Under the pieces are notes generated by a model. The model saw only the letters and a list, made by a program, of their open reading frames with translations. It had not been told where the DNA came from and searched no databases. The translations under genes and the position numbers were made by a program. Source: Bacillales bacterium (GTDB lineage: Bacteria > Bacillota > Bacilli > CAJFEE01). Taken from it: 64,000 nt of DNA. Shown here piece by piece: positions 8,933 to 32,346 of the stretch. The stretch lies in NCBI GenBank assembly GCA_029256085.1, contig JAQSYP010000003.1:3891-67890 (forward strand), written 5' to 3'. Each line of letters opens with the position of its first letter. Position 1 is the stretch's first letter.

Positions 8933-8950
8933 AATTTATCACCTCACTAC

Positions 8951-8979
8951 GAGTGTAACATAACACTGTTACACTGTAA
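8951..8979 (-). promoter_or_regulatory. Putative σA promoter for yhbD-like gene with embedded perfect palindrome GTGTAACA-N6-TGTTACAC (8952-8973). On the minus strand the -35 is TTTACA (8974-8979) and the -10 is TACACT (8951-8956).
   Basis: 17-bp spacing of the hexamers. The palindrome fills the spacer and overlaps the -10, suggesting an operator for the adjacent MerR-like protein. Confidence 0.45.
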
Positions 8980-9237
8980 AGATTAGCTCAAAAAAACTTA
9001 CGACAAAAATATTTCTAGTTTTAATAATACTAAAATATAATTATTTAATGATTGTTTATAAATGTATGATTACTTCCGCAAGGGGTTTAAATGGTATTGC
9101 AAGATCGGTAAATGCACATAGAAAGGTTTCTATGTGCATTTTAAACTATTTCTATTAAAGTAGAGAAGCTTTCATTAAAAATTAAATATACTTGAATAAT
9201 AAAATAAAAGGACCAAATGGCCCTTTTGGGTATAATT

Positions 9238-10551
9238 TTAGCTAACTTCTTTTGTTATATTTTTTCCTTTTGAAGGGGTAACTGAAATACCTGTGGACTC
9301 CTCAAAGTTATACAAACTTGTAGGTAAATCTGTAAAACGTTCAAGTTCATTGTAAGCTGGTATTCCGTGATAGGACATGTCTAAACCTTCTTCCTCTTCG
9401 CGGTCGGTCGCACGGAATCCAACAGTTTTTTCGCATAACTTTGAAACAAATGTACCACCAATAAGTCCCCAAGCAACTACGACAAATGCACCTAGTATTT
9501 GAACAGATAGTAAAGAATAGTTTCCGGTAGTTAGCAGTCCTTCACCATTGTCGAACAAACCTACTGCGATTGTACCGAATACACCGTTGAACCCATGAAC
9601 TGCAACCGCTCCAACCGGATCATCAACTTTTAAATTATCTACGAATAGTGTTGCGTAAATAACTATTAGTCCACTAATTGCACCAATTATAATAGCGCTC
9701 CATGTTGATACAAACGCGCATCCAGCTGTAATTGCAACGAGTCCAGATAGAACGCCGTTTATCGTCATACTTGGATCTGCTTTCCCAAACTTTCTAATAG
9801 TCATAAAAAGTGCGGATGCGCCACCGCTTGCTCCTGCCAACATAGTGTTTAATGCTATTAATGCTAAACTACTATTTGAAGCATCTAACGTACTTCCTGC
9901 ATTAAATGCAAACCAACCGAACCACAGAATAAAAGCGCCAGCTGATGCAAGTGGAATATTACTTGGTGCGAAAACATTAGTACTGCCATCTGAATTAAAA
10001 CGTCCTTTTCGCGGACCTAAATTTTTTGCCATTGCAAATGCTGCAAACCCTCCTACTGCATGGATAACTGCAGAACCTGCAAAATCTTTCATTCCTAAAC
10101 TAGCTAACCATCCATCGCTATTCCATACCCAATGTCCTGATAGAGGATAAATTATTAAACATATGAGAGCTGCGGTTATTATGTATGCATTAAAATTCAT
10201 ACGTTCAGCAACTGCGCCAGAAATTATTGATATACATGCTACGGCAAAACCGATTTGAAATAATACAAATGCAGCGCTAGGTAATGGAACTGATAGGACT
10301 ATGTTTTCTGGACTACCGAAGAGACTTGTTCCGATCAAACCCATAGCATCATCTCCGAACATTATTCCGAAGCCGATCAACCAAAAAGCTAAAGCACCAA
10401 CTGTTAAATCAACGAATATTTTCATTGTTACATTTACGGCATTTTTAGTACGAACAAAACCTGCTTCAAGAAGACTGAATCCGCCTTCCATAAATAAAAC
10501 CATTGCAGATGCTATAACTATCCAAATTGCGTTTAAATGAATAAGCTCCAT
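9238..10551 (-). CDS. amtB: Ammonium transporter (Amt family).
   Basis: 11-TM Amt signature with conserved FAVA/HG motifs. Downstream of a PII gene. Confidence 0.9.
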   Translation of the reverse strand: MELIHLNAIWIVIASAMVLFMEGGFSLLEAGFVRTKNAVNVTMKIFVDLTVGALAFWLIGFGIMFGDDAMGLIGTSLFGSPENIVLSVPLPSAAFVLFQIGFAVACISIISGAVAERMNFNAYIITAALICLIIYPLSGHWVWNSDGWLASLGMKDFAGSAVIHAVGGFAAFAMAKNLGPRKGRFNSDGSTNVFAPSNIPLASAGAFILWFGWFAFNAGSTLDASNSSLALIALNTMLAGASGGASALFMTIRKFGKADPSMTINGVLSGLVAITAGCAFVSTWSAIIIGAISGLIVIYATLFVDNLKVDDPVGAVAVHGFNGVFGTIAVGLFDNGEGLLTTGNYSLLSVQILGAFVVVAWGLIGGTFVSKLCEKTVGFRATDREEEEGLDMSYHGIPAYNELERFTDLPTSLYNFEESTGISVTPSKGKNITKEVS

Positions 10552-12696: not shown

Positions 12697-12733
12697 TATT
12701 TCGATAAAAAAAACCTTCTACTAGAAAGTAGAA
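12697..12733 (-). terminator. Intrinsic terminator downstream of tRNA-Sec on the minus strand.
   Basis: Hairpin ccttctac…gtagaagg followed by a U8 run on the minus strand. Confidence 0.6.
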
Positions 12734-12825
12734 GGTTATATTCAATTTATTCCCACGGTCTTACTCAAAAAGTACAATGAGACCGCATGACCTATTTAAG
12801 GACCACTATGTAAAAAACGTTAATA

Positions 12826-12922
12826 TGGCGGGACTGCATGAGAATCGAACTCACCAGAGACAGCACGTGCCTCTCATACGGTTTTGAAGACCGCGGGGTG
12901 CACCAGCAACCCAATCAGCCCC
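12826..12922 (-). tRNA. selC: tRNA-Sec (selC-like), anticodon UCA, with a long variable arm and encoded CCA.
   Basis: Hand-folded: 8-bp acceptor with one A·G mismatch, D arm GGGTTGC/TGGT/GCACCCC, anticodon arm GCGGT-CTTCAAA-ACCGT, extra arm of about 20 nt, and T arm GTGAG-TTCGATT-CTCAT. 97 nt long. Divergent from selB. Confidence 0.75.
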
Positions 12923-13019
12923 ATATAAAACATAGTATTTAATTTTCTCTTCGGGTTTATGATACACTAGAAGAAGTTTTGTATCAAGTTATAGAATTTT
13001 CCAAAGTAGGAGTGTTTTT

Positions 13020-14903
13020 ATGGAAAAAAAGTATTATACAATCGGTACAGCCGGTCATATAGATCACGGTAAAACGACCTTAATTAAAAATTTAACTAAT
13101 GTAGATACAGATAGGCTTAAGGAAGAAAAGGAAAGAAACATTTCAATAGAGCTTGGTTTCGCACCTCTGGATCTAGGGGACGATCTTCATGTATCTGTAA
13201 TAGATGTACCTGGTCATGAAAAGTTTATTAGGCAAATGATTTCTGGTGTTACAGGTATCGATTTAATGCTGCTAATCGTTGCTGCGGATGAAGGTGTAAT
13301 GCCACAAACACAAGAGCACTTAGAAATTTTAAGTTTACTCGAAGTTAAAAGAGGAATCGTAGTTATAACTAAAATTGATAAGGTTGATCAAGAACTAGTT
13401 GAAGTTGTTAAGGAAGAAATTAGAGACCAACTAGAAGGAACAATCTATTATGACAGTGAATTTGCATTGGTTGATAGCGTCAGTGGAAACGGATTAGATG
13501 CTTTAAAAAAATTAATAAAAACAGAATTACTTAAAGTTCAACCGAAACATCATACCGGGGCATTTCGAATGCCTGTCGATCAAGTATTTACGGTTAAAGG
13601 CCAAGGGACTGTCGTTAGAGGGACAGTTTATGAGGGTTCCATCTCACTAGGTGATACTATAACAGTCATGCCTGAAAATTTAAAAACGAAGGCAAGGCAA
13701 ATCCAAGTTTTCGGTAATCATGCAACTACTGTTGTTGCTGGGCAAAGGGCAGCAATAAATCTTGCAAATATAGAAAGAGATGAAATTGTTAGAGGTGACG
13801 TAATTGTTTCATCTGATGTGTATAAAGTTACAAAAACTATTGATGTTTCTTTGAAAATTGTTAAAGAAATTCAGCATCCTCTAAAGCAAAGATCGGAAAT
13901 TAAGGTACATATTGGAACATCGGGAGTAATGGGAAATGTGGTATTCTTTGATAGGAATGACGTTAAAGAATCAAATGATGAAATCTTGTGCCAACTACGA
14001 CTAGAGAATGAAATTGTTGCCAAAAGAGGTGACAGATTTATTGTTAGAAGGCCTTCCCCGGCAGAGACGGTTGGTGGTGGAGTTGTTGTTGATCCGAATG
14101 GTGATCGTTATAAGTTTGGTGAAAAAACGATAGAAATGCTTAAGTCGAAAAAGATAGGTTCACCTATTGAAAGAATGCAAACAATAATAGATATTAAAAC
14201 CCTTCTTTCTCAAAAGGATCTAATAACTTTCGCATCTGTTACTGAGCAAGAAATTTCACAATCAATAAATGATTGTGATTTAATAAAAATAGGGAATAGT
14301 TTAACTACCCCTGAGGTAATTTTAAGTCTAAAGAGATTAATTGTTGCGAACTTAAACTCATATCACAATATGTTCCCGCTAAGGTTAGGCTTAAACAAGG
14401 CAGAGTTGATACAAAATCTTACGAGTAGCTATGAAAAGTTGTTAATTGAATATGTAATTAATGACCTAATCAAAGACGCGACTTTAAAATTAAATGGACA
14501 ATTCGTCTCTATAGGAAGTTTTAAGCCTGAGTTACAAGGTAAATGGGCGAAAAGAATGGAACAAATACTAGTTAAACTAGAAAAGGACAGCTTCTTAGTA
14601 AAGCCATTTTCACATTATGTTACAGAGGAAAAGTTACCTGAAACTGAGGCGAAAGATTTTTATCATTTCTTAATTAGTGAAGGGCATGCTTATATTTTAG
14701 ATCCAATACATCTTATATCTACAAAAGCATTAAATGGCGCTTTAAAAAAGATGAAAGATGCAACTGGAGACAGCTTCGATTTACAAGTTGCAAAAGAAGT
14801 GTTAGGTATTTCTAGGAAATATTTAGTTCCCCTTATAGAACTATTTGATAAAATTGGACAAACGAAAAGAGTTGAAAATAGTAGATTCTGGTTAAATAAA
14901 TAA
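13020..14903 (+). CDS. selB: Selenocysteine-specific translation elongation factor SelB.
   Basis: N-terminal EF-Tu-like GTPase ([10 protein letters not shown]; DxPGH) plus C-terminal winged-helix extension. 627 aa. Confidence 0.9.
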
Positions 14904-14945
14904 GTATTATGTAGCAAAATAAAATAAAATATCTGTGTAAATGTA

Positions 14946-14974
14946 TTGTAAATTTGTCATAGTAGTGATAAAAT
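14946..14974 (+). promoter_or_regulatory. σA-type promoter for the fdhD-fdh operon: TTGTAA, 17-bp spacer, TGaTAAAAT extended -10. Flanked by repeats GTCATAG (×2), TAGTGA, TAGTCAC and GTCACTA (14956-15037).
   Basis: Hexamer spacing of 17 bp with a TG at -15. The repeats overlap the -10/+1 region (candidate operator). Confidence 0.45.
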
Positions 14975-15148
14975 CGTCATAGAATAGTCACAAAATAGAA
15001 ATATTTTGGAAATAATTTCATAACGATTTTGTCACTATTTTTATTTTTGGGGTTTAATAAAAACCTCTAACCCCTGGCCAGGTAAATGGACAGGTTTATA
15101 TTTTGGAATAAATTGTAAGCGATTTCTTAAACTTCAGGAGTGATACTT

Positions 15149-15877
15149 TTGATCAAAAAAGGATGTCCAGAAGAATACCCAATAACCTTGCATCTGAACA
15201 ACAATGAGATAGCTACTTTTCAGCTAACGAACAACGATCTAGAAGACTGGGCATACGGGTACCTCTTTTCCGAAGGGTTTATTACAACGAAGAGTGACAT
15301 TAGTCATATTCAACTAGATCAGGAAAAGGGCATAATTAAAGTTGAGTTAGAAAAAGGCTTTGACTCTGATGTTTTTTTCGATAAGAAAAAGCATTACACA
15401 GCTGGTTGTGGAAGAGGGGTAACCTTTTTCTCAATGACTGATGTTAAGGGTTTTAATAAAGCGGAAACATATTTTCAAATATCTAAACAATTTCTACTAA
15501 AGAAGATTCACGAATTCTCACTATCATGTCAGATGTATCTTGAAACAGGGGGAATGCACGGTGCATGTATACTTCACAAAGACGGTGACATCATCGTTAG
15601 GGAAGATATCGGTCGTCATAACGCTGTTGATAAAGTTATAGGGTATGCAGTGAGAAATAATCTCGATCCCAAGGGATTAATATTGTTAACTACTGGAAGA
15701 ATTTCCTATGAAATGCTTTCTAAAGCAGCTAAGTTTGGTTTTAGTGTTGTTGGATCTAGAACAGCTGCAACGATGCAAGCTGTGCAACTAGCTCGAGTCC
15801 TTAATATAGAAGTCATTGGTTACATTAGAGGTAGGATGTCTACTATTTATACAGATTTTAATAGAGTAGTAGATTAA
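15149..15877 (+). CDS. fdhD: Formate dehydrogenase accessory sulfurtransferase FdhD. The start is uncertain (TTG 15149 versus GTG 15140).
   Basis: GGMHGACI…GRHNAVDK motif containing the catalytic Cys of FdhD. Confidence 0.8.
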   Translation: MIKKGCPEEYPITLHLNNNEIATFQLTNNDLEDWAYGYLFSEGFITTKSDISHIQLDQEKGIIKVELEKGFDSDVFFDKKKHYTAGCGRGVTFFSMTDVKGFNKAETYFQISKQFLLKKIHEFSLSCQMYLETGGMHGACILHKDGDIIVREDIGRHNAVDKVIGYAVRNNLDPKGLILLTTGRISYEMLSKAAKFGFSVVGSRTAATMQAVQLARVLNIEVIGYIRGRMSTIYTDFNRVVD

Positions 15878-15953
15878 TAATTTGGTAACTCCTCTTATTT
15901 CTAGGAGTTCATATATAAACACAAAATTGATTATTTAAAGGAGGGGAAATGGG

Positions 15954-18926
15954 ATGAATGTAAGTCGTAGACAGTTTTTGAAATTGTCAGGTGCTACTGC
16001 AGCAACTTTAGCTTTAGTTGAATTAGGTTTCAACGAAAATGAAGTTAAAGCAAAATCGAAAGATTTTAAAATAGCTGAGTTAAAACCTACTCCGACAATT
16101 TGTCCTTACTGTTCTGTTGGTTGCGGTATTTTAGTTTATGCAACAGATAATGATGTTGTATACACTGAAGGGGACCCAGATCATCCGATTAACCAAGGTA
16201 GCCTTTGTAGTAAAGGAACTTCAATTCGCCAATTATATACTTCTGAAAAGCGTATGTTGAAGCCTTTATATCGTGCACCTGGAAGTAGCAAGTGGGAAGA
16301 AAAAGAATGGGGTTGGATGTTAGATAAAATCGCTGAGAGAGTTAAAGAATCTCGTGATAACTCATTCCAAATCGCTAAAGATGGTATTACAGTTAACCGT
16401 ACTGAAGCAATTGCATCACTAGGTGGAGCTGCTTTAGATAACGAAGAAACATATGTTATTCAAAAGTTGATGCGTGGGTTAGGTTTAACCTACATCGAGC
16501 ATCAAGCCCGAATATGACACAGTCCAACGGTTGCCGGTCTGGCGCCTACATTTGGTCGTGGAGCAATGACCAACCACTGGAATGACCTCCAGTATACTGA
16601 TTGCGCTCTAATTATGGGTGGAAACCCTGCTGAGAATCATCCAATAAGCTTTAAATATCTATTAAAAGCTAAACAAAATGGTGGGAAAATTGTATCAGTT
16701 GACCCACGTTTCACAAGATCGTCATCACAAGCAGATGTATACGCTCCGCTACGTTCAGGAACTGACATCGCGTTTCTTGGTGGTATGATAAATTACGCAA
16801 TTCAAAACGACATGATTCATAAAGATTATGTTGTTAGTTACACGAACGCTTCATTTATCGTTGAAGATACCTTCTCATATGAAGATGGTTTATTCAGCGG
16901 ATATGACGCAGAAAAACGTAAATATGATCAAAAACAATGGAAATATAAGACTGACGCTGAAGGAAAGACTGTTGTAGATAAAACTTTACAAAACCCTCGT
17001 TGCGTATATCAATTAATGAAGAAACATTTTGAAAGATATACAGTTGAAAAGGTATGTGAAGTTACAGGTACTCCTCAAGATAAATATATAGAAGTTGCTA
17101 AGACATTCTGTGCTACTGCTGACCCTAAGAAGGCGGGAACAATAATGTATGCAATGGGTACAACTCAGCATACAGTAGGAACACAAAATGTTCGTTCATT
17201 TGCTATCTTACAATTACTATTAGGAAATATTGGTGTTCCTGGTGGTGGTGTTCAAGCATTACGTGGAGAATCAAACGTTCAAGGTTCAACTGACTTTGGT
17301 TTATTATTCGGTAACTTAACAGGTTATATAGAAGTTCCACAAGCTGTTGCTGAGCAAGCTAGCTTAGAGAAGTTTTTAGGGGTTGTTACTCCAAAATTAG
17401 GATACTGGGTTAATAAGCCTAAGTTCCTTGTAAGTTTCTTAAAAGCAATGTATGGCAAGAGTGCTACTAAAGATAACGAATTTGGGTTCCAATTCTTACC
17501 TAAAATTGATCCTAAAGATTACTCACATATAGCACTATTTGAAAATATGTATGCTGGAAATCTTGATGGAGCGTTCTTATGGGGAACAAACCCAGTAGTT
17601 GGTGGACCTAACGCTTTAGTTGAAAAACAAGCTCTAGGTAAATTAAAGTGGATGGTAGCAGTTGACTTATGGGAAACTGAATCATCTTCATTCTGGCAAA
17701 AGGAAGCAGGAAGCAATCCAGAAGATATTCAAACTGAAGTATTCTTCTTACCTGCTTGTAGCTCATATGAAAAAGAAGGAACTGTTTCAAACTCTGGTCG
17801 TTGGATGCAATATCGTTGGCAAGCAATTAAGCCAAAGGGTGACTCAAAGGCTGATTTAGAAATCGTTCACATGTTAGCTCGTCGTTTAAAAGAAGCTTAC
17901 AAAGGTAGCACTAAGCCAGAAGATAAGCCTTTCCAAGCGATGACTTGGGAATTTGGTGAACATGATCATCCGGATATCGATTTAGTTGCTAAAGAAATTA
18001 ATGGTTACGATACAGTAACTGGTAAACTTGTTGCTAAATTCCCTGATCTAAAAGATGATGGAACTACTAGTAGTGGTAACTGGATTTATTGTGGATTCTA
18101 TCCTGAAGAAGGTAAGAACTTATCACAACGCCGTGACAATAAAGATACGGGTATGAGTAACTTCCTAAACTGGTCGTTCTCATGGCCAGTAAACCGTCGT
18201 ATTCTATACAACCGTGCTTCATGTGACCCTTCTGGTAAGCCATATAATGAGAAAAATGCAATTATATGGTGGGATGAGTCAGCAAAAGCTTGGGGCGGTT
18301 ATGATGTTCCTGACTTTAACAAACTTTTAGCTCCTTCAGATGAAGGTGGAGCAACTGCGTTTATGATGACTGGAACTACTAAGGGTAACTTATTTGCTCC
18401 TCGTAACGAAGGTCCGTTCCCTGAGCACTATGAGCCATTTGAAAGCCCAGTTCAGAACGCATTCTCGTCTCAACAAATTAATCCTGCTATTAAGATTTGG
18501 GATGGGGATCACAATCCTCGTGGAAACTCTGAGAAGTTCCCAATCGTAGCAACGACTTACCGTATGTCTGAGCACTGGCAATCAGGGGCAATGACACGTA
18601 ATACACCTTGGTTAGCTGAGCTTGTACCTCATATGTTAATTGAGATAAGTGAAGAATTAGCTAAGGATAAGGGAATAAAAGATAAGGATAAAGTTAAAAT
18701 ATCATCTGCACGTGGTGAAATTGAAGCATATGCAGTAGTTACTAAACGCTTTAAGCCTTATACGATACTAGGTAAAACAGTTCATCAAATCGGTATGATT
18801 TGGCATTTTGGTTACAAAGGTATTGTAACAGGTGCTTCGGCTAACAATTTAACTCCACACATTGGAGATGCGAACACAAATATTCCAGAATACAAAGCAT
18901 TCCTTTGTGATGTTAGGAGGGCGTAG
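15954..18926 (+). CDS. fdnG: Formate dehydrogenase-N-type catalytic alpha subunit, a selenoprotein. Tat signal RRQFLK. In-frame UGA (Sec) at 16515-16517 joins the two ORF-track ORFs 15954-16517 and 16566-18926 into one 990-aa protein.
   Basis: Same frame on both sides of the TGA. The context …[21 protein letters not shown]… matches the Sec site of FdnG/FdoG. A SECIS hairpin follows directly. selC, selB and selA are in the cluster. Confidence 0.85.
16518..16561 (+). promoter_or_regulatory. Bacterial SECIS element: hairpin with apical GGTTGCCGGTCTGGCGCC, immediately 3' of the UGA-Sec codon.
   Basis: Resembles the E. coli fdhF SECIS apex GGUUGCAGGUCUGCACC; the loop GGUC(U) is conserved. Confidence 0.65.
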
Positions 18927-18928
18927 TC

Positions 18929-19732
18929 GTGGAAAAGATGATTAAATTCGTAGACGTAACTTTATGCGACGGTTGTCGTGGTTGTATGGTAGCTTGTAAA
19001 AACTGGAACGATCTTCCGATTGAAATTGAAGAATTTCACGGAGTTCAGTCTCATGCTAATGTAACAGCTAACACTTGGAACGTTATAACTTACACTGAAG
19101 TTGAACGTAAAGATGGTGGACTTGATTGGTTATTCCGTCATGCTTCATGTCTACACTGTAAAGAAGCTAGCTGTGAGAAAGTATGTTCAGAAGATGCAAT
19201 TTCACACAGTAAGTATGATACAGTAGTAGTTGACGAAGATAAGTGTGTAGGTTGTGGATATTGCGTTGAGTACTGTCCATTTGATGTAATTCAACTTAAG
19301 ACGCTTAAAGATGGTCTTGTTGAGAAGAGAAAAGCATACAAGTGTACTATGTGTATTGACCGTTTAGACCAAGGCTTACAACCAGCTTGTGCTACAGCAT
19401 GTCACGCAGGTTCAATTGTATATGGTAATAAGGAAGAGTTATTAGCTAAAGCTGAAACTCGTTTACAAGATGTTAAGGATCGTTTCCCTAACGCTAACAT
19501 CTATAATCCAAAAGGGGTTGGTGGTACTAACACAGTTTATCTATTAGCAGATAAGCCAAGTGTATATGGATTACCAGAAAGCCCTAAAGTTCCAACATCA
19601 GCTGTGGTGTGGAAAGATTATGCTCAACCACTTGGGAAAGCATTATTAGGTGTTACAACAATGGCAGTAGTAGGTGCTGCGATCTCTAACGCAATCAATA
19701 ATAAAGGTGATGGAGGTCATGGCCATGAGTAA
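18929..19732 (+). CDS. fdnH: Formate dehydrogenase iron-sulfur beta subunit (FdnH-like) with four [4Fe-4S] motifs and a C-terminal TM anchor.
   Basis: CxxCxxCxxxC clusters and a C-terminal hydrophobic helix. GTG start with an AGGAGGG RBS. Confidence 0.85.
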   Translation: MEKMIKFVDVTLCDGCRGCMVACKNWNDLPIEIEEFHGVQSHANVTANTWNVITYTEVERKDGGLDWLFRHASCLHCKEASCEKVCSEDAISHSKYDTVVVDEDKCVGCGYCVEYCPFDVIQLKTLKDGLVEKRKAYKCTMCIDRLDQGLQPACATACHAGSIVYGNKEELLAKAETRLQDVKDRFPNANIYNPKGVGGTNTVYLLADKPSVYGLPESPKVPTSAVVWKDYAQPLGKALLGVTTMAVVGAAISNAINNKGDGGHGHE

Positions 19733-20396
19733 ACAAGTAAAACGTTTTTCTAAACCGGTTATTTTAGCTCACTGGTTAAATGCCTTCACATTTATGTTAT
19801 TGTATTTTACAGGATTACCATTATATTCAGAATGGTTTGATTGGGTTTACGTATTATTTGGTGGACCAGAAAATGCTAGATTTGTACATCATTATGGTGG
19901 TTTAGTATTTATTTTACCAACTGTGTTCATCTTATTAGTAGATGCTAAAAGTTTCACTCACTGGATGAAACAAATCTTCAGTTGGAAAGCACATGACTTT
20001 GCATTCTTTAAAGGTTTCGCTAAAGAATTCTTTGGTCTTCATGCTGATATTCCGAAGCAAGATTTCTATAATGCTGGTGAAAAGATTAACTCGTTATTAC
20101 AAGTATTCACTGCATTCTTACTAATCGTTTCAGGATTATTAATGTGGTTTGCAGATTTCTTTACTACAACTCTAGGCTTCTCACAATCAATTATTCTGCT
20201 TGCATACCCAATGCACTCAATCGCATTCGGTTTATCAGTTGCTGTAGTAGTTGGTCACGTTTACCTATCTATCGGACATCCGAATTCAAGACCATCAATG
20301 CAAGGTATCCTTAAGGGTTATATCTCTGAAGATTACGCTAAGGCTCACCATGGTAAGTGGTATGACGAGGAAGTTAAAGATAATTTAAAAATGTAA
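19725..20396 (+). CDS. fdnI: Formate dehydrogenase cytochrome b gamma subunit (FdnI-like).
   Basis: 4-TM protein with His ligands; overlaps the fdnH end. GGAGG RBS 8 nt upstream of the ATG at 19725. Confidence 0.8.
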   Translation: MSKQVKRFSKPVILAHWLNAFTFMLLYFTGLPLYSEWFDWVYVLFGGPENARFVHHYGGLVFILPTVFILLVDAKSFTHWMKQIFSWKAHDFAFFKGFAKEFFGLHADIPKQDFYNAGEKINSLLQVFTAFLLIVSGLLMWFADFFTTTLGFSQSIILLAYPMHSIAFGLSVAVVVGHVYLSIGHPNSRPSMQGILKGYISEDYAKAHHGKWYDEEVKDNLKM

Positions 20397-20487
20397 TTAA
20401 GTTTTTTTGAAGGAATGGCTACACTGGTGGTAGCCTTCCTTTATTTAACTAAAAATCCTATTGTTTCTAATTAGCGAGGTGCAAAAA

Positions 20488-21285
20488 ATGGGTCAACAAA
20501 ATGTTGTATCAAAAGAATACCAAGAGCTTCAAGAACAGTTAAACTCATGGCATAAGAATTGGTCAGAAAAGGTAAATGCAGAAGACATAACTAAGTCTTC
20601 CCCAAAAATTAGCAATGACCTACCAATCTTGAGTCAAATAGAAGTAAATATTAATGAAGAAATATTATCAGAAATGTTTGCTGACTTAATTTTACTTTTA
20701 AATGAGATAACACCGAATTTAAAGTCTTCACTTGTAAAAGTGGAAAATATAAAGAGCGAAGAGTTAAAAAAATGGTTTGAAGAATCTGTGCGTTCTAATA
20801 ATCTATACTTTGAGAAATATGCTGAAGAAAATGAACTTGAGTCATGGATACCCCAATTTTTAGCAGAACATTTAATTCGCCCGTTTTTACACGTGATGAG
20901 TAAACAATTTGAAGACAAGCTTGAAGGAATTAATAACGGTATAGGATGTAAATTTTGTGGTGAACCAGTACGCCTAGCTAAACAAGGAGAGAACGGGAAA
21001 AAGGTAGTTGTATGTCCACGATGTGAGGCGTCATGGGAACACAAGAAGCTAGAGTGTGCTATTTGCGGTAACGATGACCACAAGGAGCTTACAATTATCA
21101 AAATAGATGATGATACTACGGCTCAAATTCAAGCATGTAAAAAGTGTAATGGATACCTAAAATTTGTAGAAGCAAGAAACTTATTTAGAAACCATTCACC
21201 TGAAATAGTTGACCTATTAACTATTCACTACGATTATGTAGCTCAGGAAAAGGGATATGGCGAAAGTATAGAGCAAAAAAACTAA
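20488..21285 (+). CDS. fdhE: Formate dehydrogenase accessory protein FdhE.
   Basis: Multiple CxxC rubredoxin-like motifs (CKFCGEP…CPRCE…CAICGN…CKKCNGY). Confidence 0.8.
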   Translation: MGQQNVVSKEYQELQEQLNSWHKNWSEKVNAEDITKSSPKISNDLPILSQIEVNINEEILSEMFADLILLLNEITPNLKSSLVKVENIKSEELKKWFEESVRSNNLYFEKYAEENELESWIPQFLAEHLIRPFLHVMSKQFEDKLEGINNGIGCKFCGEPVRLAKQGENGKKVVVCPRCEASWEHKKLECAICGNDDHKELTIIKIDDDTTAQIQACKKCNGYLKFVEARNLFRNHSPEIVDLLTIHYDYVAQEKGYGESIEQKN

Positions 21286-21293
21286 GGTGTAGC

Positions 21294-21908
21294 ATGGATA
21301 AACTTAATATATCTAATATAATCTTAGCTGGCGGTCTCTCGTCAAGAATGGGAACAAATAAGGCAGAATTAAAAATTGGTGAACACACTGTTATTGAACG
21401 TATAATAAAAGAATTTGAACCACCTACTAACGAATCAATTATCGTTACAAATAATCCAAATTGCTATAATTCGTTTAATTGGAAATGTGTTAGCGATATT
21501 TACTTTCAAAAAGGTCCACTAGGTGGAATACATGCAGGACTGTTAAGTAGCACAAATGAAATTAATTTTGTTATATCGTGTGATATGCCTTTTCCAAATG
21601 CTAAACTTCTAACAAAAATGCTTGAACATATACACTATAACGATATAGTAGTTCCAGTAATAAATGAAAAGTTACACCCCTTATTTGGGTTGTACAAGAA
21701 GTCAATACTAACTGAATTGATTGATTGCTTGGAGCAAGATAATCTCCGTGTTAGAAAATTGTATGAGAAGTTAAGCACGTATTATATTACTGAGAAGGAA
21801 TTATATACTAAGAGTGAGTTAGAAAAAGGTATATATGAGATAGATTTTTTTAATATGAACACTATGAATGATTATTCAAAAGCAAAAAGCTTGTATAGTG
21901 AGTTTTGA
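21294..21908 (+). CDS. mobA: Molybdenum cofactor guanylyltransferase MobA-like.
   Basis: N-terminal ILAGGLSSRMG nucleotide-binding motif. Confidence 0.75.
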   Translation: MDKLNISNIILAGGLSSRMGTNKAELKIGEHTVIERIIKEFEPPTNESIIVTNNPNCYNSFNWKCVSDIYFQKGPLGGIHAGLLSSTNEINFVISCDMPFPNAKLLTKMLEHIHYNDIVVPVINEKLHPLFGLYKKSILTELIDCLEQDNLRVRKLYEKLSTYYITEKELYTKSELEKGIYEIDFFNMNTMNDYSKAKSLYSEF

Positions 21909-21941
21909 TGCCGCTAAGTATTGAAAGAAGGAAACATATAT

Positions 21942-23171
21942 ATGAAATTTTTCAATGTTCATACAGTTGAAGAAGTATTTAACTTAATCGACGATAAAAT
22001 CAAACCTATAGAATATACTGAAAAAGTTCTAATTAGCAACGCATTAAACCGAATATTATCAGTAGATATTTACTCTAATGAAAATGTTCCTAACTTTAGA
22101 CGTTCTACTGTAGATGGTTATGCTGTAAAAGCAGATGATACCTTTGGATCAAGCGAGTCAATGCCTGGTTTTCTTAACTTAATCGGTGAAATTAAGATGG
22201 GTGAGGAACCTTCTAGTGAAGTTAATTACGGAGAGGCAATGTATGTTCCAACAGGAGGAATGGTTCCTGACGGTGCTACTTCAGTAGTGATGATTGAACA
22301 CTGCGAAGAAATTGAATCACTTTTGAATGTTTATAGACAAGTTGCCCCGAATGAAAACATAATTCAGGTAGGGGAAGATATAAAAGTTAATGAACTTGTA
22401 CTGTCAAAAGGGAAGAAACTCCGAGCTCAAGAGCTTGGTGCGCTTTCTGCCTTAGGTATACTAGAAGTTGAAGTTTATAAGAAGATAAAAGTCGGCTATA
22501 TTTCAACTGGTGATGAGATAGTTACACCTGACACCATTAAATTAGAAATGGGTAAGGTTAGAGATGTTAATGCAATTACTCTCAACTCTATTTGTAAGCA
22601 AATGGATATTGATTTTATTTACGGAGGTATTGTTAAAGATAGTGAAGATGAGCTTTACAGAGTTACATCGAATTTATTAGCAGAAGTTGATTGCCTAATA
22701 CTTTCAGGTGGTAGTTCAGTTGGAACTAAAGACTACTCTGTAGATGTTATAAATAAATTAGGCAAACCAGGGGTATTTACCCATGGGATTTCTGTAAAAC
22801 CAGGCAAACCGACGATATTATCTATCGCAAATGACAAGCCTGTTATTGGATTACCGGGCCATCCTGTTTCTGCTTTAATAATATTTAAAGTGTTTGGAAC
22901 TACTATCCTTAATAAATATTCTGGTAACCGTAGTAGCTTATTTATTAATAAGATAACAGCTAAACTTACGAAAAATATCCCTTCAGCTGCTGGTAGGGCA
23001 GACTATATAAGAGTTAGCCTAGAAAAAACGGAAACTGGCTGGGATGCGACTCCTATTTTTGGGAAGTCAGGATTAATATCAACTTTAGTATCAAGTGAAG
23101 GTATTGCTGAAATTCCATCGGCTAAAGAAGGGGTTTTAGCTGGAGAATTAATAGAAGTAATACTTTTCTAA
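21942..23171 (+). CDS. moeA: Molybdopterin molybdotransferase MoeA.
   Basis: MoeA N, MoCF-biosynthesis and C-terminal domains. GAAGGA RBS before the ATG at 21942. Confidence 0.8.
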   Translation: MKFFNVHTVEEVFNLIDDKIKPIEYTEKVLISNALNRILSVDIYSNENVPNFRRSTVDGYAVKADDTFGSSESMPGFLNLIGEIKMGEEPSSEVNYGEAMYVPTGGMVPDGATSVVMIEHCEEIESLLNVYRQVAPNENIIQVGEDIKVNELVLSKGKKLRAQELGALSALGILEVEVYKKIKVGYISTGDEIVTPDTIKLEMGKVRDVNAITLNSICKQMDIDFIYGGIVKDSEDELYRVTSNLLAEVDCLILSGGSSVGTKDYSVDVINKLGKPGVFTHGISVKPGKPTILSIANDKPVIGLPGHPVSALIIFKVFGTTILNKYSGNRSSLFINKITAKLTKNIPSAAGRADYIRVSLEKTETGWDATPIFGKSGLISTLVSSEGIAEIPSAKEGVLAGELIEVILF

Positions 23172-23189
23172 CGGGTGTGTGATGCAAAT

Positions 23190-25106
23190 ATGATAAAAAA
23201 TAAATATGAACGTAAAATTTATCTATCAGATATTCCTAGGGAAAAGGCTCTTGAGCAAATATTATCACAATATAAACCGAAACTTAGGACAGTAACTAAA
23301 AATGCGACTGAGTCGATAGGAAACGTAACAGCCGAACCAATTTATGCAAAGAGATCTGTACCACATTATCATGCATCTGCAATGGACGGTATAGCGGTTA
23401 TAGCAGAAAGAACATTTGAAGCTAATGACAATAATCCTTTGCGCTTAATAAAAGGTGAAGACTACTGCATAGTAGATACTGGTAATGAAATAAAGTCTCC
23501 ATATGATTCAGTAATAATGATTGAAAATGTACAAGAGATTGATGAAAATATAGTAGAAATAATAGAACCAGCTACCCCATGGCAACATATTAGACCGATC
23601 GGTGAAGATATGGTCCAAGGTGAAATGCTATTTACGCAAGGTCATAAAATCAGACCAGTGGATCTTGGGGTACTTCTTTCAAGTGGCAATCAATCTGTAA
23701 AGGTTGTTATGCCTCCTAAAGTCACAATAATACCTACTGGTAATGAGCTAGTTTATCCTAGTGAAACAATTGAACCTGGAAAGATTGTTGAATTTAATGG
23801 ATCTGTTATGGCTGCATTCGTATCAGAGTGGGGCGGGCAACCTTTATTACACGAAATAGTAAAAGATAGTCCAGATTCAATTAAAGAAGCGCTTATAAAT
23901 GCTTCGAGGGATTCTGATGTAGTTATAATTAACGCAGGATCGTCTGCTGGATCAAAAGATTATACAGTTCATATAATCTCTGAAATTGGGAAAGTATTTA
24001 CACATGGCGTTGCAACTAGACCAGGAAAACCTGTTATCCTAGGAGAAATTAACGGAACAATAGTAGTTGGATTACCAGGATATCCAGTTTCAGCATATTT
24101 AGCATTGGAATGGTTTATAAAACCGTTAATAAATAAATATAACAATAATAACCATTGTAATAGGCATAAAATTAGTGCTAAACTTGGTCGTAGAATTGTG
24201 TCTACAATGGGTTCAGAAGATTTTGTACGTGTGACTTTAGGGAATATTAATGGAGAGCTAATTGCTAATCCATTGACTAGAGCTGCAGGAGTTACAATGT
24301 CGCTAGTGAAAGCAGATGGTTTACTTGTTGTTCCATCTAACGTCGTTGGTTTTGAACAAGGTGATTATGTTGAAATTGAACTTTATAAATCTATTGAAGA
24401 TATAGAAAAGTCAATAACTATAACAGGTAGTCATGATCTTGCCATAGATATATTGCACTCAATTCTAAAAAATACTAATACTGAGCAGACAATTACATCT
24501 ACTCACGTCGGAAGTATGGCAGGAATAATGGCAATTAAAAAAGGCGAGGCTCATATCGCTGGAATTCATCTGTTAGATCCAGAAACAAAAACGTATAATA
24601 TTCCTTACGTAAAAAAGCATCTAAAAGATAATAATATTGTTATATTGCCTTTTGTAAAAAGAATGCAAGGATGGATTACATCTAGTAATAATTTAAATGA
24701 ATATAGAAATGTTTCTGACCTTGTAAAAAACAAAATACCGTTTGTAAATAGACAAAAAGGTGCAGGAACTAGGATTCTCTTTGACTTGATACTAAGAGAC
24801 AATAACATTAAGCCATCTGAGATTCTTGGATATAATCGTGAGATGTTTACGCATCTAAGTGTTGCTGCAGAAGTTGCACAAACAAATAGTGTAGGACTTG
24901 GAATAGCTCCAGCTGCAGAAGCCATGGGATGTAGTTTCATACCAGTAGCTGAAGAATCATATGATTTACTTATGACTAAGGAATTTTTTGAAAGTCATTC
25001 TGGACAAACGTTATATAAAATCATAACTAGTTTAGAATTCAAACAAGAGGTTGAAAAAATTTCAGGTTATAAGGTTGATACTAATATAGAACCAATTTAT
25101 ATTTAA
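23190..25106 (+). CDS. MoeA-like molybdopterin molybdotransferase fused to a C-terminal periplasmic-binding-protein-like (substrate-binding) domain. The start is uncertain (23175 GTG versus 23190 ATG).
   Basis: N-terminal two-thirds is paralogous to MoeA. The C-terminal ~230 aa resembles a PBP/LysR-substrate-binding fold. Confidence 0.7.
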
Positions 25107-25128
25107 AGAGAAAAAGGGGGACGTTTTA

Positions 25129-25326
25129 ATGTTCAACAATATCGGTGTACCAGGGCTTATTTTAATTTTATTCTTAGTACTAATAATTTTTGGTCCAAAA
25201 AAGCTTCCTGAAATTGGTAGAGCTTTTGGGCAAACATTAAAAGAGTTTAAGAAATCTACTAATGAATTAACAAAAGACATTACAGAAGAAGTAGCAGAAG
25301 TTAAAGACGAGATTAAAAAATTATAA
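25129..25326 (+). CDS. tatA: Twin-arginine translocase subunit TatA/E.
   Basis: 65-aa single TM plus amphipathic helix, with the [11 protein letters not shown] signature. Confidence 0.9.
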
Positions 25327-25421
25327 TTTAAAAATTAAAAGACGAATCTTATATGATTCGCTTTTTCTTTTTGGGCAAAAATATTAAAATTAAGATTATA
25401 CAATATCTTACGAGGTGAGAA

Positions 25422-26840
25422 ATGAATAACCTTTTACGTCAATTGCCACCAATTCATGAGTTACAAAGAAACGATGCATACGAAATATTAAAGAATAAGC
25501 TCAAAGTTGGTGATGAACTAATAACGAATATATTAAAAATAGAAGTCGATGATCTAAGAAAGTTAATCCTTTCGAAAGGGAATTTAGATATTGATAATAT
25601 TGAAAAATATCTATTTGAAAAAGTTAAACACCATTTAAGTAGACTACTACAACCAAGATTAAAAAGAGTAATAAATGCAAGTGGAACAGTCTTACATACA
25701 AATTTAGGTCGATCAAGATTAAGTGACGACGCTATTACAAGAGTTGTTGAAGTAGCTAGAAATTATTCAAACCTTGAATATAATTTAGCTGAGGGTAAGC
25801 GTGGCTCCCGTCATTCAATAATTGAAGAATGGGTTAAATTAGCAACAGGTGCTGAGGCAGCTATGGTAGTAAATAATAATGCAGCAGCCGTTTACCTAAT
25901 TCTTAGAGCACTCGCTAAAGACAAAGAAGTTATTGTTTCGAGGGGGCAATTAGTCGAAATAGGTGGTTCATTTAGAGTTTCATCAATTATGGAGGAAAGT
26001 GGAGCCAAACTGAAAGAGATAGGCACAACTAATAAAACTCATATTAGCGACTATGAAGCTGCTATAACTGAAAATACAGCAATGCTATTAAAAGTACATA
26101 CTTCAAACTTTAAAATTATTGGATTTACAAAAACTGTAGAGTCCGATGAGTTAGTTCAGTTAAGTAATAAACACGACAATGTCATTGTCTATGAAGATTT
26201 AGGCAGTGGTGTTTTATATGACTATAAGAAAGATTGCATTGGGGATGAACCTCTAGTTAAAAGTGTATTAGATCAAGGTGTTGATATTGTTTCTTTTAGT
26301 GGAGATAAACTTCTTGGTGGACCTCAAGCAGGAATAATTGCGGGTAAAAAGCATCTAATTGAAAAACTAAAGAAAAATCAACTAGCACGAGTTCTTAGGG
26401 TTGATAAAATGACCTTAGCTGCATTAGAGGCAACAATATCCGCCTATGTTAGAGGAAATGAATATGCTAAAAGTATTCCAACCGTTAGGAATCTAGTTGA
26501 AACAAAGGATGTTGTTCATCAAAAGGCAATGATGATGGTTGATAAATTAGAATCTACTTCTAGAGGTTATTCTACACGTATCATAGAAGATGTTTCTGAA
26601 ATAGGTGGAGGTACTATGCCTGGTACAACTATCCCAACTTATGTTGTAGAGGTAAAGCATGATGTGGTTTCTACATCATTAATAGATAAAAAACTACATG
26701 AAAATGAAGTAAGTATTATTGGAAGAATCCAAAATGATAAAATCATATTCGATTTACGTACGGTAGAAATTGATGAGATACAAACGATTATAAATGCATT
26801 AATAAAACTTGAGGAACAATATGATTTATCCAGAAAATGA
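25422..26840 (+). CDS. selA: L-seryl-tRNA(Sec) selenium transferase SelA.
   Basis: PLP-lysine motif FSGDKLLGGPQAG. 472 aa. Confidence 0.9.
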   Translation: MNNLLRQLPPIHELQRNDAYEILKNKLKVGDELITNILKIEVDDLRKLILSKGNLDIDNIEKYLFEKVKHHLSRLLQPRLKRVINASGTVLHTNLGRSRLSDDAITRVVEVARNYSNLEYNLAEGKRGSRHSIIEEWVKLATGAEAAMVVNNNAAAVYLILRALAKDKEVIVSRGQLVEIGGSFRVSSIMEESGAKLKEIGTTNKTHISDYEAAITENTAMLLKVHTSNFKIIGFTKTVESDELVQLSNKHDNVIVYEDLGSGVLYDYKKDCIGDEPLVKSVLDQGVDIVSFSGDKLLGGPQAGIIAGKKHLIEKLKKNQLARVLRVDKMTLAALEATISAYVRGNEYAKSIPTVRNLVETKDVVHQKAMMMVDKLESTSRGYSTRIIEDVSEIGGGTMPGTTIPTYVVEVKHDVVSTSLIDKKLHENEVSIIGRIQNDKIIFDLRTVEIDEIQTIINALIKLEEQYDLSRK

Positions 26841-27575: not shown

Positions 27576-28055
27576 ATGAAAAAGTGGTTTGAAGAGAATA
27601 TGATTGCGAGTATTCTTTTGGCAATCCTACGTATATACTTAGGTTTTTCATGGTTAAGTTCAGGATGGTCAAAGGCAACTGGTGAAGGGTTTACAGCTGA
27701 AGGGTTCTTAAAAGGAGCACTTGGACAAACTACGGGTGATCATCCAAGCGTATTACCGTTTTGGGGTGGATTTCTGGAAAACGTGGCACTACCAAATGTC
27801 GGGCTTTTCAATTTCTTAGTAGTTTACGGTGAAATAGCAATTGGAATTGCCCTAATTATTGGTTTATTTACTAGAACAGCTTTAATATTTAGTTTGATTA
27901 TGAATTTCTCATTTATGTTCAGTGGTTCAACCGGTGTTAATCCATATTACGTACTATATGCACTAATTTTATTAATAGGTGGTAGAAATACGGGTAAATA
28001 TGGTGTTGATGGTCTTATTATTGCTAAAAGGTTTGGTAATAGAGCAAGAATGTGA
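27576..28055 (+). CDS. DoxX family membrane protein.
   Basis: 4-TM DoxX signature. Confidence 0.7.
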   Translation: MKKWFEENMIASILLAILRIYLGFSWLSSGWSKATGEGFTAEGFLKGALGQTTGDHPSVLPFWGGFLENVALPNVGLFNFLVVYGEIAIGIALIIGLFTRTALIFSLIMNFSFMFSGSTGVNPYYVLYALILLIGGRNTGKYGVDGLIIAKRFGNRARM

Positions 28056-28107
28056 TATAAATAAACTAGAGCTAGCAAAATGCTGGCTCTAGTTTTATGA
28101 TTAAGAT

Positions 28108-28485
28108 TTATTTAACAACTTCATAATTCCAAGACTGCATTCCACCTTCTACATTATATACAGTCTTAAATCCATTGTTTATAAGAATATCACTTGCACT
28201 TTGTGAACGATTACCACTTCTGCATATTACGAGAATTTCTTTTTCTTTATCTAATTCTCCTAATTGTGCTTCTAAAGTCTGAAGTGGAAATAGCTTCGCT
28301 TCAGGTATATGACCTGAATTATATTCTTCTATTGTTCTTACATCAATTAGAACTACTTCATCTGGATTAGAACCTAGCATGTTTTTCGCTTCCTCAGTTG
28401 TGACATTTTTCCAACCAGAACTACTACAACCACTGATAAATACTGAGATTAAAACAAAGAAAATAATTTTACTAAAAAATTTCAT
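28108..28485 (-). CDS. Rhodanese-domain lipoprotein (single-domain sulfurtransferase).
   Basis: Lipobox LISVFISGC. Active-site loop CRSGNRS. Confidence 0.8.
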   Translation of the reverse strand: MKFFSKIIFFVLISVFISGCSSSGWKNVTTEEAKNMLGSNPDEVVLIDVRTIEEYNSGHIPEAKLFPLQTLEAQLGELDKEKEILVICRSGNRSQSASDILINNGFKTVYNVEGGMQSWNYEVVK

Positions 28486-28781: not shown

Positions 28782-29804
28782 ATGTTTAAGAAATTAATAG
28801 CTACAGTAACGACTATGATATTAGTTCTATCACCTTTTACATTAGTAGCTAACGCAGAAACTAATACGGTGGATCTTCAGAAATTCCCGTACAAATCAGT
28901 TGCAATCCAGGTTATGCCAGAATATGATTATCCACAAAATTATCCAACGGATCAGCCAGTTGTGTTAGTGGGGTACTATGGTACGATGACTAATAAAACC
29001 GGAAGTGATTACAATGGAGAAATCGCTATTCCACTTCCAGTAAACGAAAAATATTTTCAAATATATATAGCTGCAGAATTCCCAGAGGAAAATAAGCCTG
29101 AAGTTCAGAGACCTTATAAGATCGATAAAGAAAAAGGTCTTATAACTTGGAAACCTTCTAATCCTATTAAAAAGGATGCAGATTATAAGTTTGTAGTAGA
29201 ATATTATTCGAATCCGATAGAAGTTGGAGATTCTAAGAAGTTTCCATTTGTATATACTGCACCTGCAAATGTAGATGCAATCGATATTCTGTTCTTTGCT
29301 CCGGCAAAATCAACAGATTTCAAAACAGATATTCCAGCAACAACAGTTTCTAAGACTGACTATAATGAAACACTTCTTGCATACCAGTATAAAAACCTAA
29401 AGGCTGGAGAGAAGAAAGCTTTTAACGTTTCTTATGTAAAAAAGGACAACTCTTCAACACTATCGAATATTAAACAGAACCCACCTGAAGCGAATCAATC
29501 AGGGTCAAATACTACAACTACAGAAAGTAGACCTATAATTGACGCTGTAGGGGCTTCGATAATTGGTGGATCTTTAATAATAATGGGATTTTTCATTTTC
29601 TTAGGATATAAACAAAAAGGTTCAACACCACCTTCTAAGAGTAATGTAAAGCACAAGAACAGTTCAACAAAGCAGCAACAGTCGGCACCAAAGAAAAATA
29701 ATAGCGTGTCAGTAATGGATGAGAAGAAAAAGCTTAGAAAAATGTTGCTTAATGGCGAGATAGATCAAGAAACTTACGAACTTAAACTATCAAAATTAGA
29801 ATAA
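28782..29804 (+). CDS. Uncharacterised bitopic membrane protein with a signal peptide, an ~250-aa extracytoplasmic domain, one TM and a cytoplasmic SHOCT-like tail. Paralogous in architecture to the 33287-34279 product.
   Basis: Signal peptide …LVANA. TM GASIIGGSLIIMGFFIFLGY. C-terminal LRKMLLNGEIDQETYELKLSKLE (SHOCT pattern). Confidence 0.6.
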   Translation: MFKKLIATVTTMILVLSPFTLVANAETNTVDLQKFPYKSVAIQVMPEYDYPQNYPTDQPVVLVGYYGTMTNKTGSDYNGEIAIPLPVNEKYFQIYIAAEFPEENKPEVQRPYKIDKEKGLITWKPSNPIKKDADYKFVVEYYSNPIEVGDSKKFPFVYTAPANVDAIDILFFAPAKSTDFKTDIPATTVSKTDYNETLLAYQYKNLKAGEKKAFNVSYVKKDNSSTLSNIKQNPPEANQSGSNTTTTESRPIIDAVGASIIGGSLIIMGFFIFLGYKQKGSTPPSKSNVKHKNSSTKQQQSAPKKNNSVSVMDEKKKLRKMLLNGEIDQETYELKLSKLE

Positions 29805-29819
29805 TAGGGGGAAAATAAG

Positions 29820-30284
29820 ATGAGTAAAAATGCAAAAATGATTGGTGGATCTCTAGTAATTGCAGTTGCGATTTTATTCCTATTAATTGCGGCAACACCA
29901 GGTTCAAGTGGAGTAGAGCTTAAATTAGCTGAACTACTAAAAGATCAACAAGAGTACACAGATGATTATGTAACTGTTGAAGGATTATTAATCGAGGATT
30001 CTATTAAATGGGATGCAGATAAAATCCAACTTAAATTTGACGTTCAAGATGAGAACGGTAAGAAGTTAAGTGTAATATATAACGGTGTTAAACCTGATAA
30101 TTTTTCTGAAGGTGTAATTACAATTTTACAAGGTAGTCCTGACGAGGAAAAAGCTGGTTTATTCCATGCAGAAACTGTAAAAACAAGATGTCCTTCAAAA
30201 TATGAAGGTGAGGACATGAAGAACTACGATCCAGAAGCTCACAAAGATAAGTTAAATAAAAAATCAGAAGAAGAGACAAAATAA
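29820..30284 (+). CDS. ccmE: Cytochrome c-type biogenesis heme chaperone CcmE, variant with a C-x3-Y (CPSKY) heme-binding motif in place of H-x3-Y.
   Basis: N-terminal TM. OB-fold core aligns with E. coli CcmE ([21 protein letters not shown] ~ [34 protein letters not shown] ~ AKEVLAKHDENYT). Confidence 0.8.
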   Translation: [154 protein letters not shown]

Positions 30285-30317
30285 AACTAAACTAGTAAAT
30301 TGAAAGGTGAAAACCAA

Positions 30318-32300: not shown

Positions 32301-32309
32301 TTAAAGCAG

Positions 32310-32346
32310 CTGGGGGAGAGTCTTTCTCCCCAGAGCTTTTTTTGAG
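32310..32346 (+). terminator. Strong intrinsic terminator between ccmF and the ccmH-like gene.
   Basis: ctgggggagag-tctt-tctccccag hairpin followed by TTTTTTT. Confidence 0.65.

Follow-up and report, generated by a model that had tools for sequence, protein, structure and literature searches.

Between positions 12826 and 26840 of a 64,000-nucleotide stretch of contig JAQSYP010000003.1 (assembly GCA_029256085.1; the whole stretch is called the window throughout), genes for the insertion of selenocysteine (Sec) enclose the genes of a formate dehydrogenase (FDH). Two questions arise from this locus: is the in-frame UGA in fdnG, the gene of the FDH alpha subunit, read as Sec, and was the interval brought in as a foreign island or rearranged in place? 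The locus combines sel genes with those of a selenium-containing, membrane-bound FDH in a spore-forming, Bacillus-like bacterium known solely from metagenomes. As judged from sequence comparison, and with a probability of roughly 0.85, the interval would encode a three-subunit, menaquinone-linked enzyme of the Fdh-N type, FdnGHI, with Sec at residue 188 (Sec188), and would represent a rearranged native locus rather than a recent island.

Genes were scored against NCBIfam and Pfam models with curated cut-offs, RNA elements against Rfam with its gathering scores, and tRNAs were called by ARAGORN. Downstream of a tRNA-Sec gene, the plus strand carries 11 genes: selB, fdhD, fdnG, fdnH, fdnI, fdhE, mobA, moeA, a MoeA fusion, tatA and selA. 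Their top family matches are those named in a first-pass annotation made from the sequence; all listed genes are present between 12826 and 26840, and the main calls have strong family support.

The host itself can be placed by its protein identities. PyrG shows 98% identity to its closest match and then 83–85% to many Bacillaceae genera. SelB, searched in a large protein collection, shows 98% and 89% to two sister populations and then a plateau at or below 54%. SelA stays on a plateau of 53–58.5% across the Bacillaceae, with a best match of 59% in GTDB and of 61% in a JGI metagenome collection that did not include the source contig itself. FdnG reaches a plateau of 65–71%, and its homologues, listed from Mesobacillus, Neobacillus, Robertmurraya and others, are nearly all split at the UGA. 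Each of the four proteins is about equidistant from many genera of the Bacillaceae and Anoxybacillaceae. On the right flank the genes follow the order rpoE-pyrG-fbaA-tal-murA-glpX-rho-rpmE-tdk-prfA-prmC-spoIIR, and gerQ is present. Due to these plateaus, the order from rpoE to spoIIR and the presence of gerQ, the host is a deep-branching, spore-forming member of the Bacillales. The earlier description of a Bacillus-like chromosome is in good agreement with the PyrG identities and with the Bacillus-pattern order through pyrG, fbaA, rho, prfA and spoIIR. The flanks are of housekeeping type, as had been stated, with amtB, P-II and a histidine kinase upstream and uracil-DNA glycosylase (UDG), DoxX and rhodanese genes downstream.

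Two related populations of the organism were found in a sister metagenome sample. One is represented by a 360-kb contig (L082, L092) that is about 88% identical to the window, the other by a 16-kb contig (L121) with 95.8% identity. An independent Logan assembly, SRR35185192 (L084), contains the locus at 100% identity.

The UGA codon of fdnG and the encoded enzyme

The gene fdnG (15954–18926, plus strand, 990 codons) matches the FDH-N-type catalytic subunit family TIGR01553 with 1259 bits against a cut-off of 814. Translation confirms the in-frame UGA that had been noted in the FDH alpha gene: codon 188 (16515–16517, plus strand) is the sole in-frame TGA of fdnG and lies in the context IEHQARI-TGA-HSPTVAGL. 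Directly 3' of the UGA, a bacterial selenocysteine insertion sequence (SECIS) hairpin (16512–16570, plus strand) scores 69.9 bits with the Rfam model SECIS_3 (RF01989; gathering score 63, E = 6.6e-15), and it is the only SECIS which Rfam reports in the window. When the 61 nt 3' of the UGA are folded by minimum free energy, the result is no better than with shuffled sequence (z = -0.22), and support for the SECIS therefore comes from the covariance model and from cross-species comparison.

In this comparison, the TGA is kept in the same context in the sister contig L082 and in the Bacillaceae contigs L085, L086 and L087. The apical hairpin of the SECIS, GGUUGCCGGUCUGGC(G/A)CC, recurs in relatives with an FdnG identity of only about 70%. 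SECIS_3 remains below its gathering score in L085, L086 and L087, though TGA and apical hairpin are kept there. Relative to L082, the reading frame shows zero non-synonymous change on either side of the UGA. FdnG furthermore matches solved Sec-containing FDHs from end to end (6SDR, 1003 bits; 1H0H, 985; 1KQF_A, 926), and its motif IEHQARI-U-HSPTV aligns residue by residue on the catalytic Sec of these enzymes. A minority of the Bacillaceae homologues run full length and have Cys at the position of Sec (HQARICHSS; proteins P0024, P0069 and P0108). Therefore, Sec and Cys forms coexist in the FdnG family.

Export of the alpha subunit by the twin-arginine translocation (Tat) system had been proposed, and the N-terminus of FdnG, MNVSRRQFLKLSGATAATLALVELGF, indeed holds a twin-arginine signal with the motif SRRQFLK; the precomputed match to PF10518 is marked as weak. 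The second subunit, FdnH (18929–19732, plus strand), is a four-cluster Fe-S protein with a C-terminal tail. Its best family is TIGR01582, and among solved structures it comes closest to E. coli FdnH (1KQF_B, 201.7 bits), with an alignment to residue 240. FdnI (19719–20396, plus strand, with a possible open reading frame start at 19674) is a cytochrome b membrane subunit, with TIGR01583 as the family scored and 69.9 bits to PF01292. Its sole real solved relative is 1KQF_C (54.7 bits), against which its histidines line up in each of the four H-containing motifs; these histidines would be the heme ligands.

By these matches the predicted enzyme is an ordinary Fdh-N-type complex. With E. coli Fdh-N (FdnGHI, PDB 1KQF) it shares the three-subunit layout, an alpha subunit that has a Tat signal and Sec directly before His, a predicted four-cluster beta subunit that ends in a C-terminal tail, and a cytochrome b gamma subunit whose histidines match in four motifs. 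It differs in that the host has a single membrane, so that the enzyme would face the cell wall instead of a periplasm, and in that fdnH and fdnI score below the NCBIfam equivalog cut-offs. Moreover, fdhD, fdhE, mobA, two copies of moeA, tatA and sel genes lie in cis here; in E. coli the same accessory genes are scattered. The top matches of the alpha subunit are the periplasmic tungsten- and Sec-containing FdhAB enzymes of Desulfovibrio vulgaris and D. gigas (6SDR, 1H0H), in which IEHQARI-U-HSPTV is identical. Their beta subunits match FdnH with only 105–120 bits, in contrast to the 201.7 bits of E. coli FdnH. These FdhAB enzymes are soluble alpha-beta dimers without a cytochrome b subunit. 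By its sequence, FdnG could be a molybdenum or a tungsten enzyme.

Following established knowledge of the pathway, SelB with bound GTP would bind the SECIS, and Sec would be delivered at the UGA. MoeA and the MoeA fusion would put molybdenum or tungsten into molybdopterin, MobA would add GMP, and FdhD would sulfurate the cofactor. The FdhE-like protein and TatA, together with a TatC encoded elsewhere, may then move the folded alpha and beta subunits to the outside of the membrane. There, formate would be oxidized, and its electrons would reach menaquinone by way of two b hemes after passing four Fe-S clusters.

Of a bacterial Sec-insertion system the locus has tRNA-Sec, SelB, SelA, SECIS and in-frame UGA. 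Its description as complete was not borne out, since selD, tatC, moaA-E/moeB and mobB are all missing from the sequence covered. The search for selD extended over positions 1–77161 of the 196-kb JGI contig Ga0456364_0000204, of which the window is a part. An E. coli SelD query used with tblastn proved usable, as it matched 73 of 80 SelA loci of relatives; it had no match in the window, and no AIR-synthase-type gene was found in contig positions 1–17317 or 56775–77161. No tatC, moaA-E/moeB or mobB was found in the window and contig positions 1–77161. In comparison with the approximately 88% identical sister L082, all cluster genes have dN/dS (ratio of non-synonymous to synonymous divergence) values of 0.02–0.12, with 0.063 for selB and 0.095 for selA at a synonymous divergence (dS) of about 0.9. 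These values show purifying selection on the whole cluster and leave little doubt that the sel genes are being kept. On these grounds selD is expected elsewhere in the genome. This fits the view of Zhang et al. 2006 (PMC1794560), for whom the evolution of selD is uncoupled from that of selA, selB and selC. That the lineage truly does without selD, SelA being given activated selenium by another route, is possible but unlikely.

Gene order in comparison with known loci

The lineage-specific feature of the locus is its gene order. The genes of tRNA-Sec and SelB abut fdhD, and tatA and selA stand where relatives have moaE-moaD-moeB-yflT. For comparison, SelA loci were taken from 80 listed of 170 SelA-encoding GTDB stretches, mostly from named Bacillaceae, and from 28 metagenome loci. 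Selenoprotein machinery had been called sporadic in the Bacillaceae; this is loosely true, yet a GTDB scan limited by its search pattern still gave those 170 stretches. Of the 80 GTDB loci, 72 have a divergent selD upstream of selA and 25 include selB, and none has FdnG within 10 kb of selA. Nor does an FDH stand beside selA in any of the 28 metagenome loci. Beyond the sister populations, searches of GTDB, of the JGI metagenomes and with the SelB protein gave no further example of the order seen in the window.

The closest known arrangement from fdhD onward is an operon found on four Bacillaceae contigs (L085, L086, L087 and L122), unrelated and drawn from three sources. All four carry fdhD-fdnG(TGA)-fdnH-fdnI-fdhE-mobA-moeA. 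L086, L087 and L122 continue with the MoeA fusion, moaE, moaD, moeB and yflT, followed by the same UDG gene as in the window, and L085 ends inside the MoeA fusion. This operon, which runs between pdxK and UDG, has the order of the window from fdhD and 36–71% protein identity to the window cluster. It shares the TGA and the apex of the SECIS in L085, L086 and L087, and gene calling breaks the fdnG of L122 at the matching point. UDG itself is 49–52% identical to its counterparts and is no more diverged than the cluster genes. In Bacillus subtilis, ung and pdxK are neighbours. In contrast to the window, the Bacillaceae fdhD operons have neither sel genes nor tatA at the locus (tatA gave no tblastn match at E <= 1e-8) and keep moaE-moaD-moeB-yflT. 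Upstream, too, they differ: the operons are preceded by pdxK, DUF1806 and PIG-L, the locus of the window by amtB, P-II and a histidine kinase.

The usual sel cluster of the Bacillaceae, in which selD diverges from selA or from tRNA-Sec, selB and selA, encodes proteins of 53–58% (SelA) and about 50–54% (SelB) identity to those of the window. The pair of tRNA-Sec on the minus strand and selB on the plus strand recurs in five such clusters (L003, L004, L007, L064 and L072). Unlike these, the window has no selD, and its selB and selA lie 10.5 kb apart with the FDH genes in between. In this lineage, tRNA-Sec and selB on one side, and tatA and selA on the other, have probably come to lie at the two ends of the FDH operon.

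Proximity of sel genes to an FDH gene is by itself not new. Zhang et al. 2006 (PMC1794560) described selA-selB-selC operons beside fdhA in Alpha- and Betaproteobacteria and in Pseudomonadales and found sel genes and fdhA often in one operon, a point repeated by Peng et al. 2016. The window resembles these loci in that Sec genes stand beside the gene of what is probably the main or only selenoprotein, with selD elsewhere. It differs in that its sel genes flank the FDH operon on both sides instead of forming an operon of their own, and its signals point to a native rearrangement, whereas Zhang et al. proposed a transfer for the case in Pseudomonadales. The clustering of sel genes and fdhA has thus been known since 2006, and the gene order described here is unreported, though functionally unremarkable.

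Divergence of fdnG and origin of the locus

A second peculiarity concerns fdnG alone. From 15923 to 19011, a tract that begins 31 nt before the start of fdnG and ends some 85 nt inside fdnH, the window differs from L082 at 5 of 3089 positions (99.84% identity), and all five differences are synonymous. A further stretch, 19636–20165, was listed alongside this tract in the L082 comparison. The genes beside fdnG are 82–91% identical to those of L082, and an independent 21-kb region is 87.9% identical; dS is 0.006–0.017 in fdnG and 0.5–1.2 in its neighbours, a difference of about 100-fold. Whichever cause applies, fdnG is far less diverged than its flanks.

One explanation is that the fdnG allele alone was recently swapped by homologous recombination or swept through the populations, the rest of the locus having diverged vertically. 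We give this close to even odds, at most. It would account for the all-synonymous differences amid neighbours of 82–91% identity and for the low dS of fdnG, and the intermediate dS of fdnH and fdnI (0.20–0.24) suggests older events of the same kind. What weakens it is the composition of the sister sample (3300042923), which also holds the 95.8% population; the contig of that population, L121, breaks off within fdhD, immediately ahead of the tract. Because of this break, the 360-kb contig could be a chimeric path through the fdnG of that population. Even with such a chimera, identity would stand at 99.84% in fdnG against 95.8% in the flanks. If a swap or sweep did occur, it would represent a gene-specific sweep of a selenoenzyme allele across populations of an uncultured Bacillales lineage that are otherwise 4–12% diverged.

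For the locus as a whole, the alternative to a native rearrangement is that the 14-kb interval is a recent genomic island which brought the Sec trait and its one selenoprotein from an unrelated donor. Clustering of sel genes with fdhA has been proposed as the arrangement that lets the Sec trait be transferred (PMC1794560), the combination in the window was not met in the 80 genome and 28 metagenome loci centred on selA, and a tRNA gene marks one edge of the interval. The composition of the interval gives no sign of an island, however. GC content at third codon positions (GC3) is 0.238 in the cluster and 0.231 outside (p = 0.21, Mann-Whitney), and by pooled codon-usage distance the cluster ranks 18 of 49 contiguous gene blocks. 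A raised GC content at 15–20 kb was considered as a trace of foreign DNA and rejected; similar values occur at 43–45 and 58–60 kb, and GC3 shows no significant difference. No integrase or transposase was found among the neighbouring genes (amtB, P-II, histidine kinase, UDG, DoxX, rhodanese), a survey of genes in which direct repeats at the borders were not searched. The nearest SelA, SelB and FdnG are all from Bacillaceae and show a plateau pattern like that of PyrG, and the identity of SelA to other Bacillaceae SelAs has a median of 55.7%, compared to 59.7% among those SelAs. Finally, the block of FDH and molybdenum cofactor (Moco) genes is syntenic with distant Bacillaceae, in three cases also with UDG downstream. 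An island of recent origin is, in consequence, improbable.

The first-pass annotation had left open whether the module was laterally acquired or patchily retained. The former finds no support in GC3, codon usage or the synteny of the FDH/Moco block, and the latter fits, with the block common to four distant Bacillaceae contigs. Ubiquity among close relatives had been suggested as a test; the whole locus is present in both other populations of the lineage, and this cannot separate lateral acquisition from retention. As only two other populations of the lineage are known, the test is uninformative. In view of the native composition, the synteny on four contigs (on three of them up to UDG) and the lack of flanking mobility genes, the FDH/Moco operon is an old Bacillaceae operon adjoining the UDG gene and an old resident of this site.

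That the UGA is a true stop, fdnG being split or decaying and the sel genes relics, is barely credible, since the split into products of 187 and 770 residues by gene callers and the lack of a selD in the window and in contig positions 1–77161 are outweighed by a SECIS above the gathering score exactly at the UGA, by UGA and reading frame kept in distant relatives, by a catalytic motif that matches the Sec position of solved enzymes and by strong purifying selection on selA and selB across a dS of about 0.9.

Several points nevertheless count against a native, Sec-containing Fdh-N-type locus. The argument from synteny draws on the contigs of four relatives only. No selD was found in 77 kb of contig, compared to a selD beside selA in 73 of 80 other Bacillaceae loci. 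FdnH and FdnI score under the equivalog cut-offs of NCBIfam (215.8 against 334.7 bits and 112.6 against 115.85 bits, respectively), and the top structural matches of FdnG are tungsten enzymes (6SDR, 1H0H), slightly above the molybdenum enzyme 1KQF. The call of fdhE, the sole weak call according to the gene list, has both family models below cut-off.

Gene calls, surrounding features and implications

On the minus strand, selC encodes a tRNA-Sec with anticodon UCA (TCA in the DNA) at 12826–12922, called by ARAGORN and supported by Rfam (RF01852, 64.4 bits, gathering score 47). It is the only tRNA that ARAGORN finds across the window, and its sequence is identical in the sister lineage L082. A consensus scan reports a terminator-like hairpin of 11 pairs with a T run just 3' of it (12712–12737, minus strand), with a putative terminator function. 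The gene selB (13020–14903, plus strand; TIGR00475, 372.6 bits, cut-off 242) encodes the Sec-specific elongation factor with C-terminal winged-helix domains for SECIS binding, and its precomputed Pfam matches are PF09106, PF09107 and PF25461. At the other end of the interval, selA (25422–26840, plus strand; TIGR00474, 556.7 bits, cut-off 267.9) encodes selenocysteine synthase. The 3' end of selA runs 20–32 nt into the UDG gene (26809–26840), an overlap suggestive of co-transcription of a Sec-pathway gene with a gene for DNA repair.

The spacer between selB and fdhD (14904–15139, plus strand, 236 nt) is near-invariant in the three populations: it includes stretches of 115 and 93 nt without a single difference, against 4–15% difference in the coding flanks. 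A palindrome, CAAAATA-N4-TATTTTG, and recurring GTCA(T/C) motifs lie within the spacer. It neither aligns to the fdhD upstream regions of other Bacillaceae nor has a match in Rfam, and it is probably a promoter/operator or leader of the FDH operon, with a presumed regulatory role.

Maturation of the cofactor and export are covered by six plus-strand genes. For fdhD (15140–15877), the sulfurtransferase for the FDH cofactor, TIGR00129 gives 169.2 bits against a cut-off of 140.9. The fdhE-like maturation protein (20461–21285) has four CxxC motifs and scores 30.3 bits with TIGR01562 (cut-off 187.65) and 19.1 with PF24860 (cut-off 27); it is a positional ortholog, at 36–37% identity, of genes in relatives that match FdhE_C (PF24860). 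The Moco guanylyltransferase gene mobA (21294–21908) has MobA families as its best matches, all below cut-offs: PRK14489.1-1 (MobA/MobB) with 153.8 bits (cut-off 379), NF001457 with 113 (164) and TIGR02665 with 100 (151.85). The molybdopterin metal insertase gene moeA (21921–23171) likewise stays below cut-off with PRK14498 (411 bits, cut-off 534) and PRK10680 (278, cut-off 440). The following gene (23175–25106) encodes MoeA fused to a periplasmic-binding-protein-like domain and scores 705 bits with PRK14498 (cut-off 534) and 206.8 with PF12727 (PBP_like). It is followed by tatA (25129–25326; PF02416, 73.8 bits).

The consensus scan further reports plus-strand terminator-like hairpins 3' of fdnI (20417–20435) and between tatA and selA (25343–25360). 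Given such hairpins after tRNA-Sec, fdnI and tatA, the layout suggests several transcription units rather than one operon. A consensus scan for promoters gave 77 sites, compared to 76 in shuffled sequence, and no promoter is claimed, this count being no higher than expected from shuffling. The intergenic regions of the locus contain no Moco riboswitch or other Rfam family (E <= 1).

Downstream of selA and UDG, a membrane protein of the DoxX/DoxD family and a lipoprotein-type rhodanese, whose signal ends in ISGC, are encoded at 27576–28485 and are kept in the sister lineage. A role of the pair in the handling of sulfur or selenium is conceivable. Bacillales normally use System II for cytochrome c maturation; the window contains a System I cluster (28782–37104, plus strand) of CcmE, CcmF, a CcmH-like protein, CcmA, CcmB, CcmC and a thioredoxin-like protein. 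Its CcmE has the cysteine variant motif CPSKY (System I*), a variant that occurs in some firmicutes (review PMC3601427). Two unannotated, membrane-anchored secreted proteins are encoded inside the cluster (28782–29804 and 33287–34279), and no CxxCH protein of at least 90 amino acids is encoded in the window.

Other parts of the window and of its sister contigs show further differences and repeats. An intergenic repeat of about 118 nt has at least three copies in the window (6826–6943, 37138–37255 and 48738–48855) and one in L082 (4650–4767), with 88–96% identity. At the left edge, a T-box leader (RF00230, 140.9 bits; 1423–1657, minus strand) precedes the gene of a branched-chain amino acid transporter. 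Just past amtB, the sister contigs L082 (248–2689) and L121 (2774–6048) carry genes for an accessory SecA2 and Sec_acc_SLAP, both of which the strain of the window lacks (around 8932–9238).

The understanding of Sec insertion and of formate oxidation is unchanged by this locus. It offers a clean example, from a spore-former with a single membrane, of the rule proposed in 2006, with the Sec machinery beside the FDH gene that justifies it and selD apart. In practical terms, its 14 kb form a compact parts list for producing, in a Gram-positive host, a molybdenum or tungsten enzyme that depends on Sec and is exported by Tat. For the family, the Sec-containing operon of Fdh-N type adjoining ung is widely common to Bacillaceae; this suggests that the absence of the Sec-FDH trait from model species such as Bacillus subtilis is a loss.

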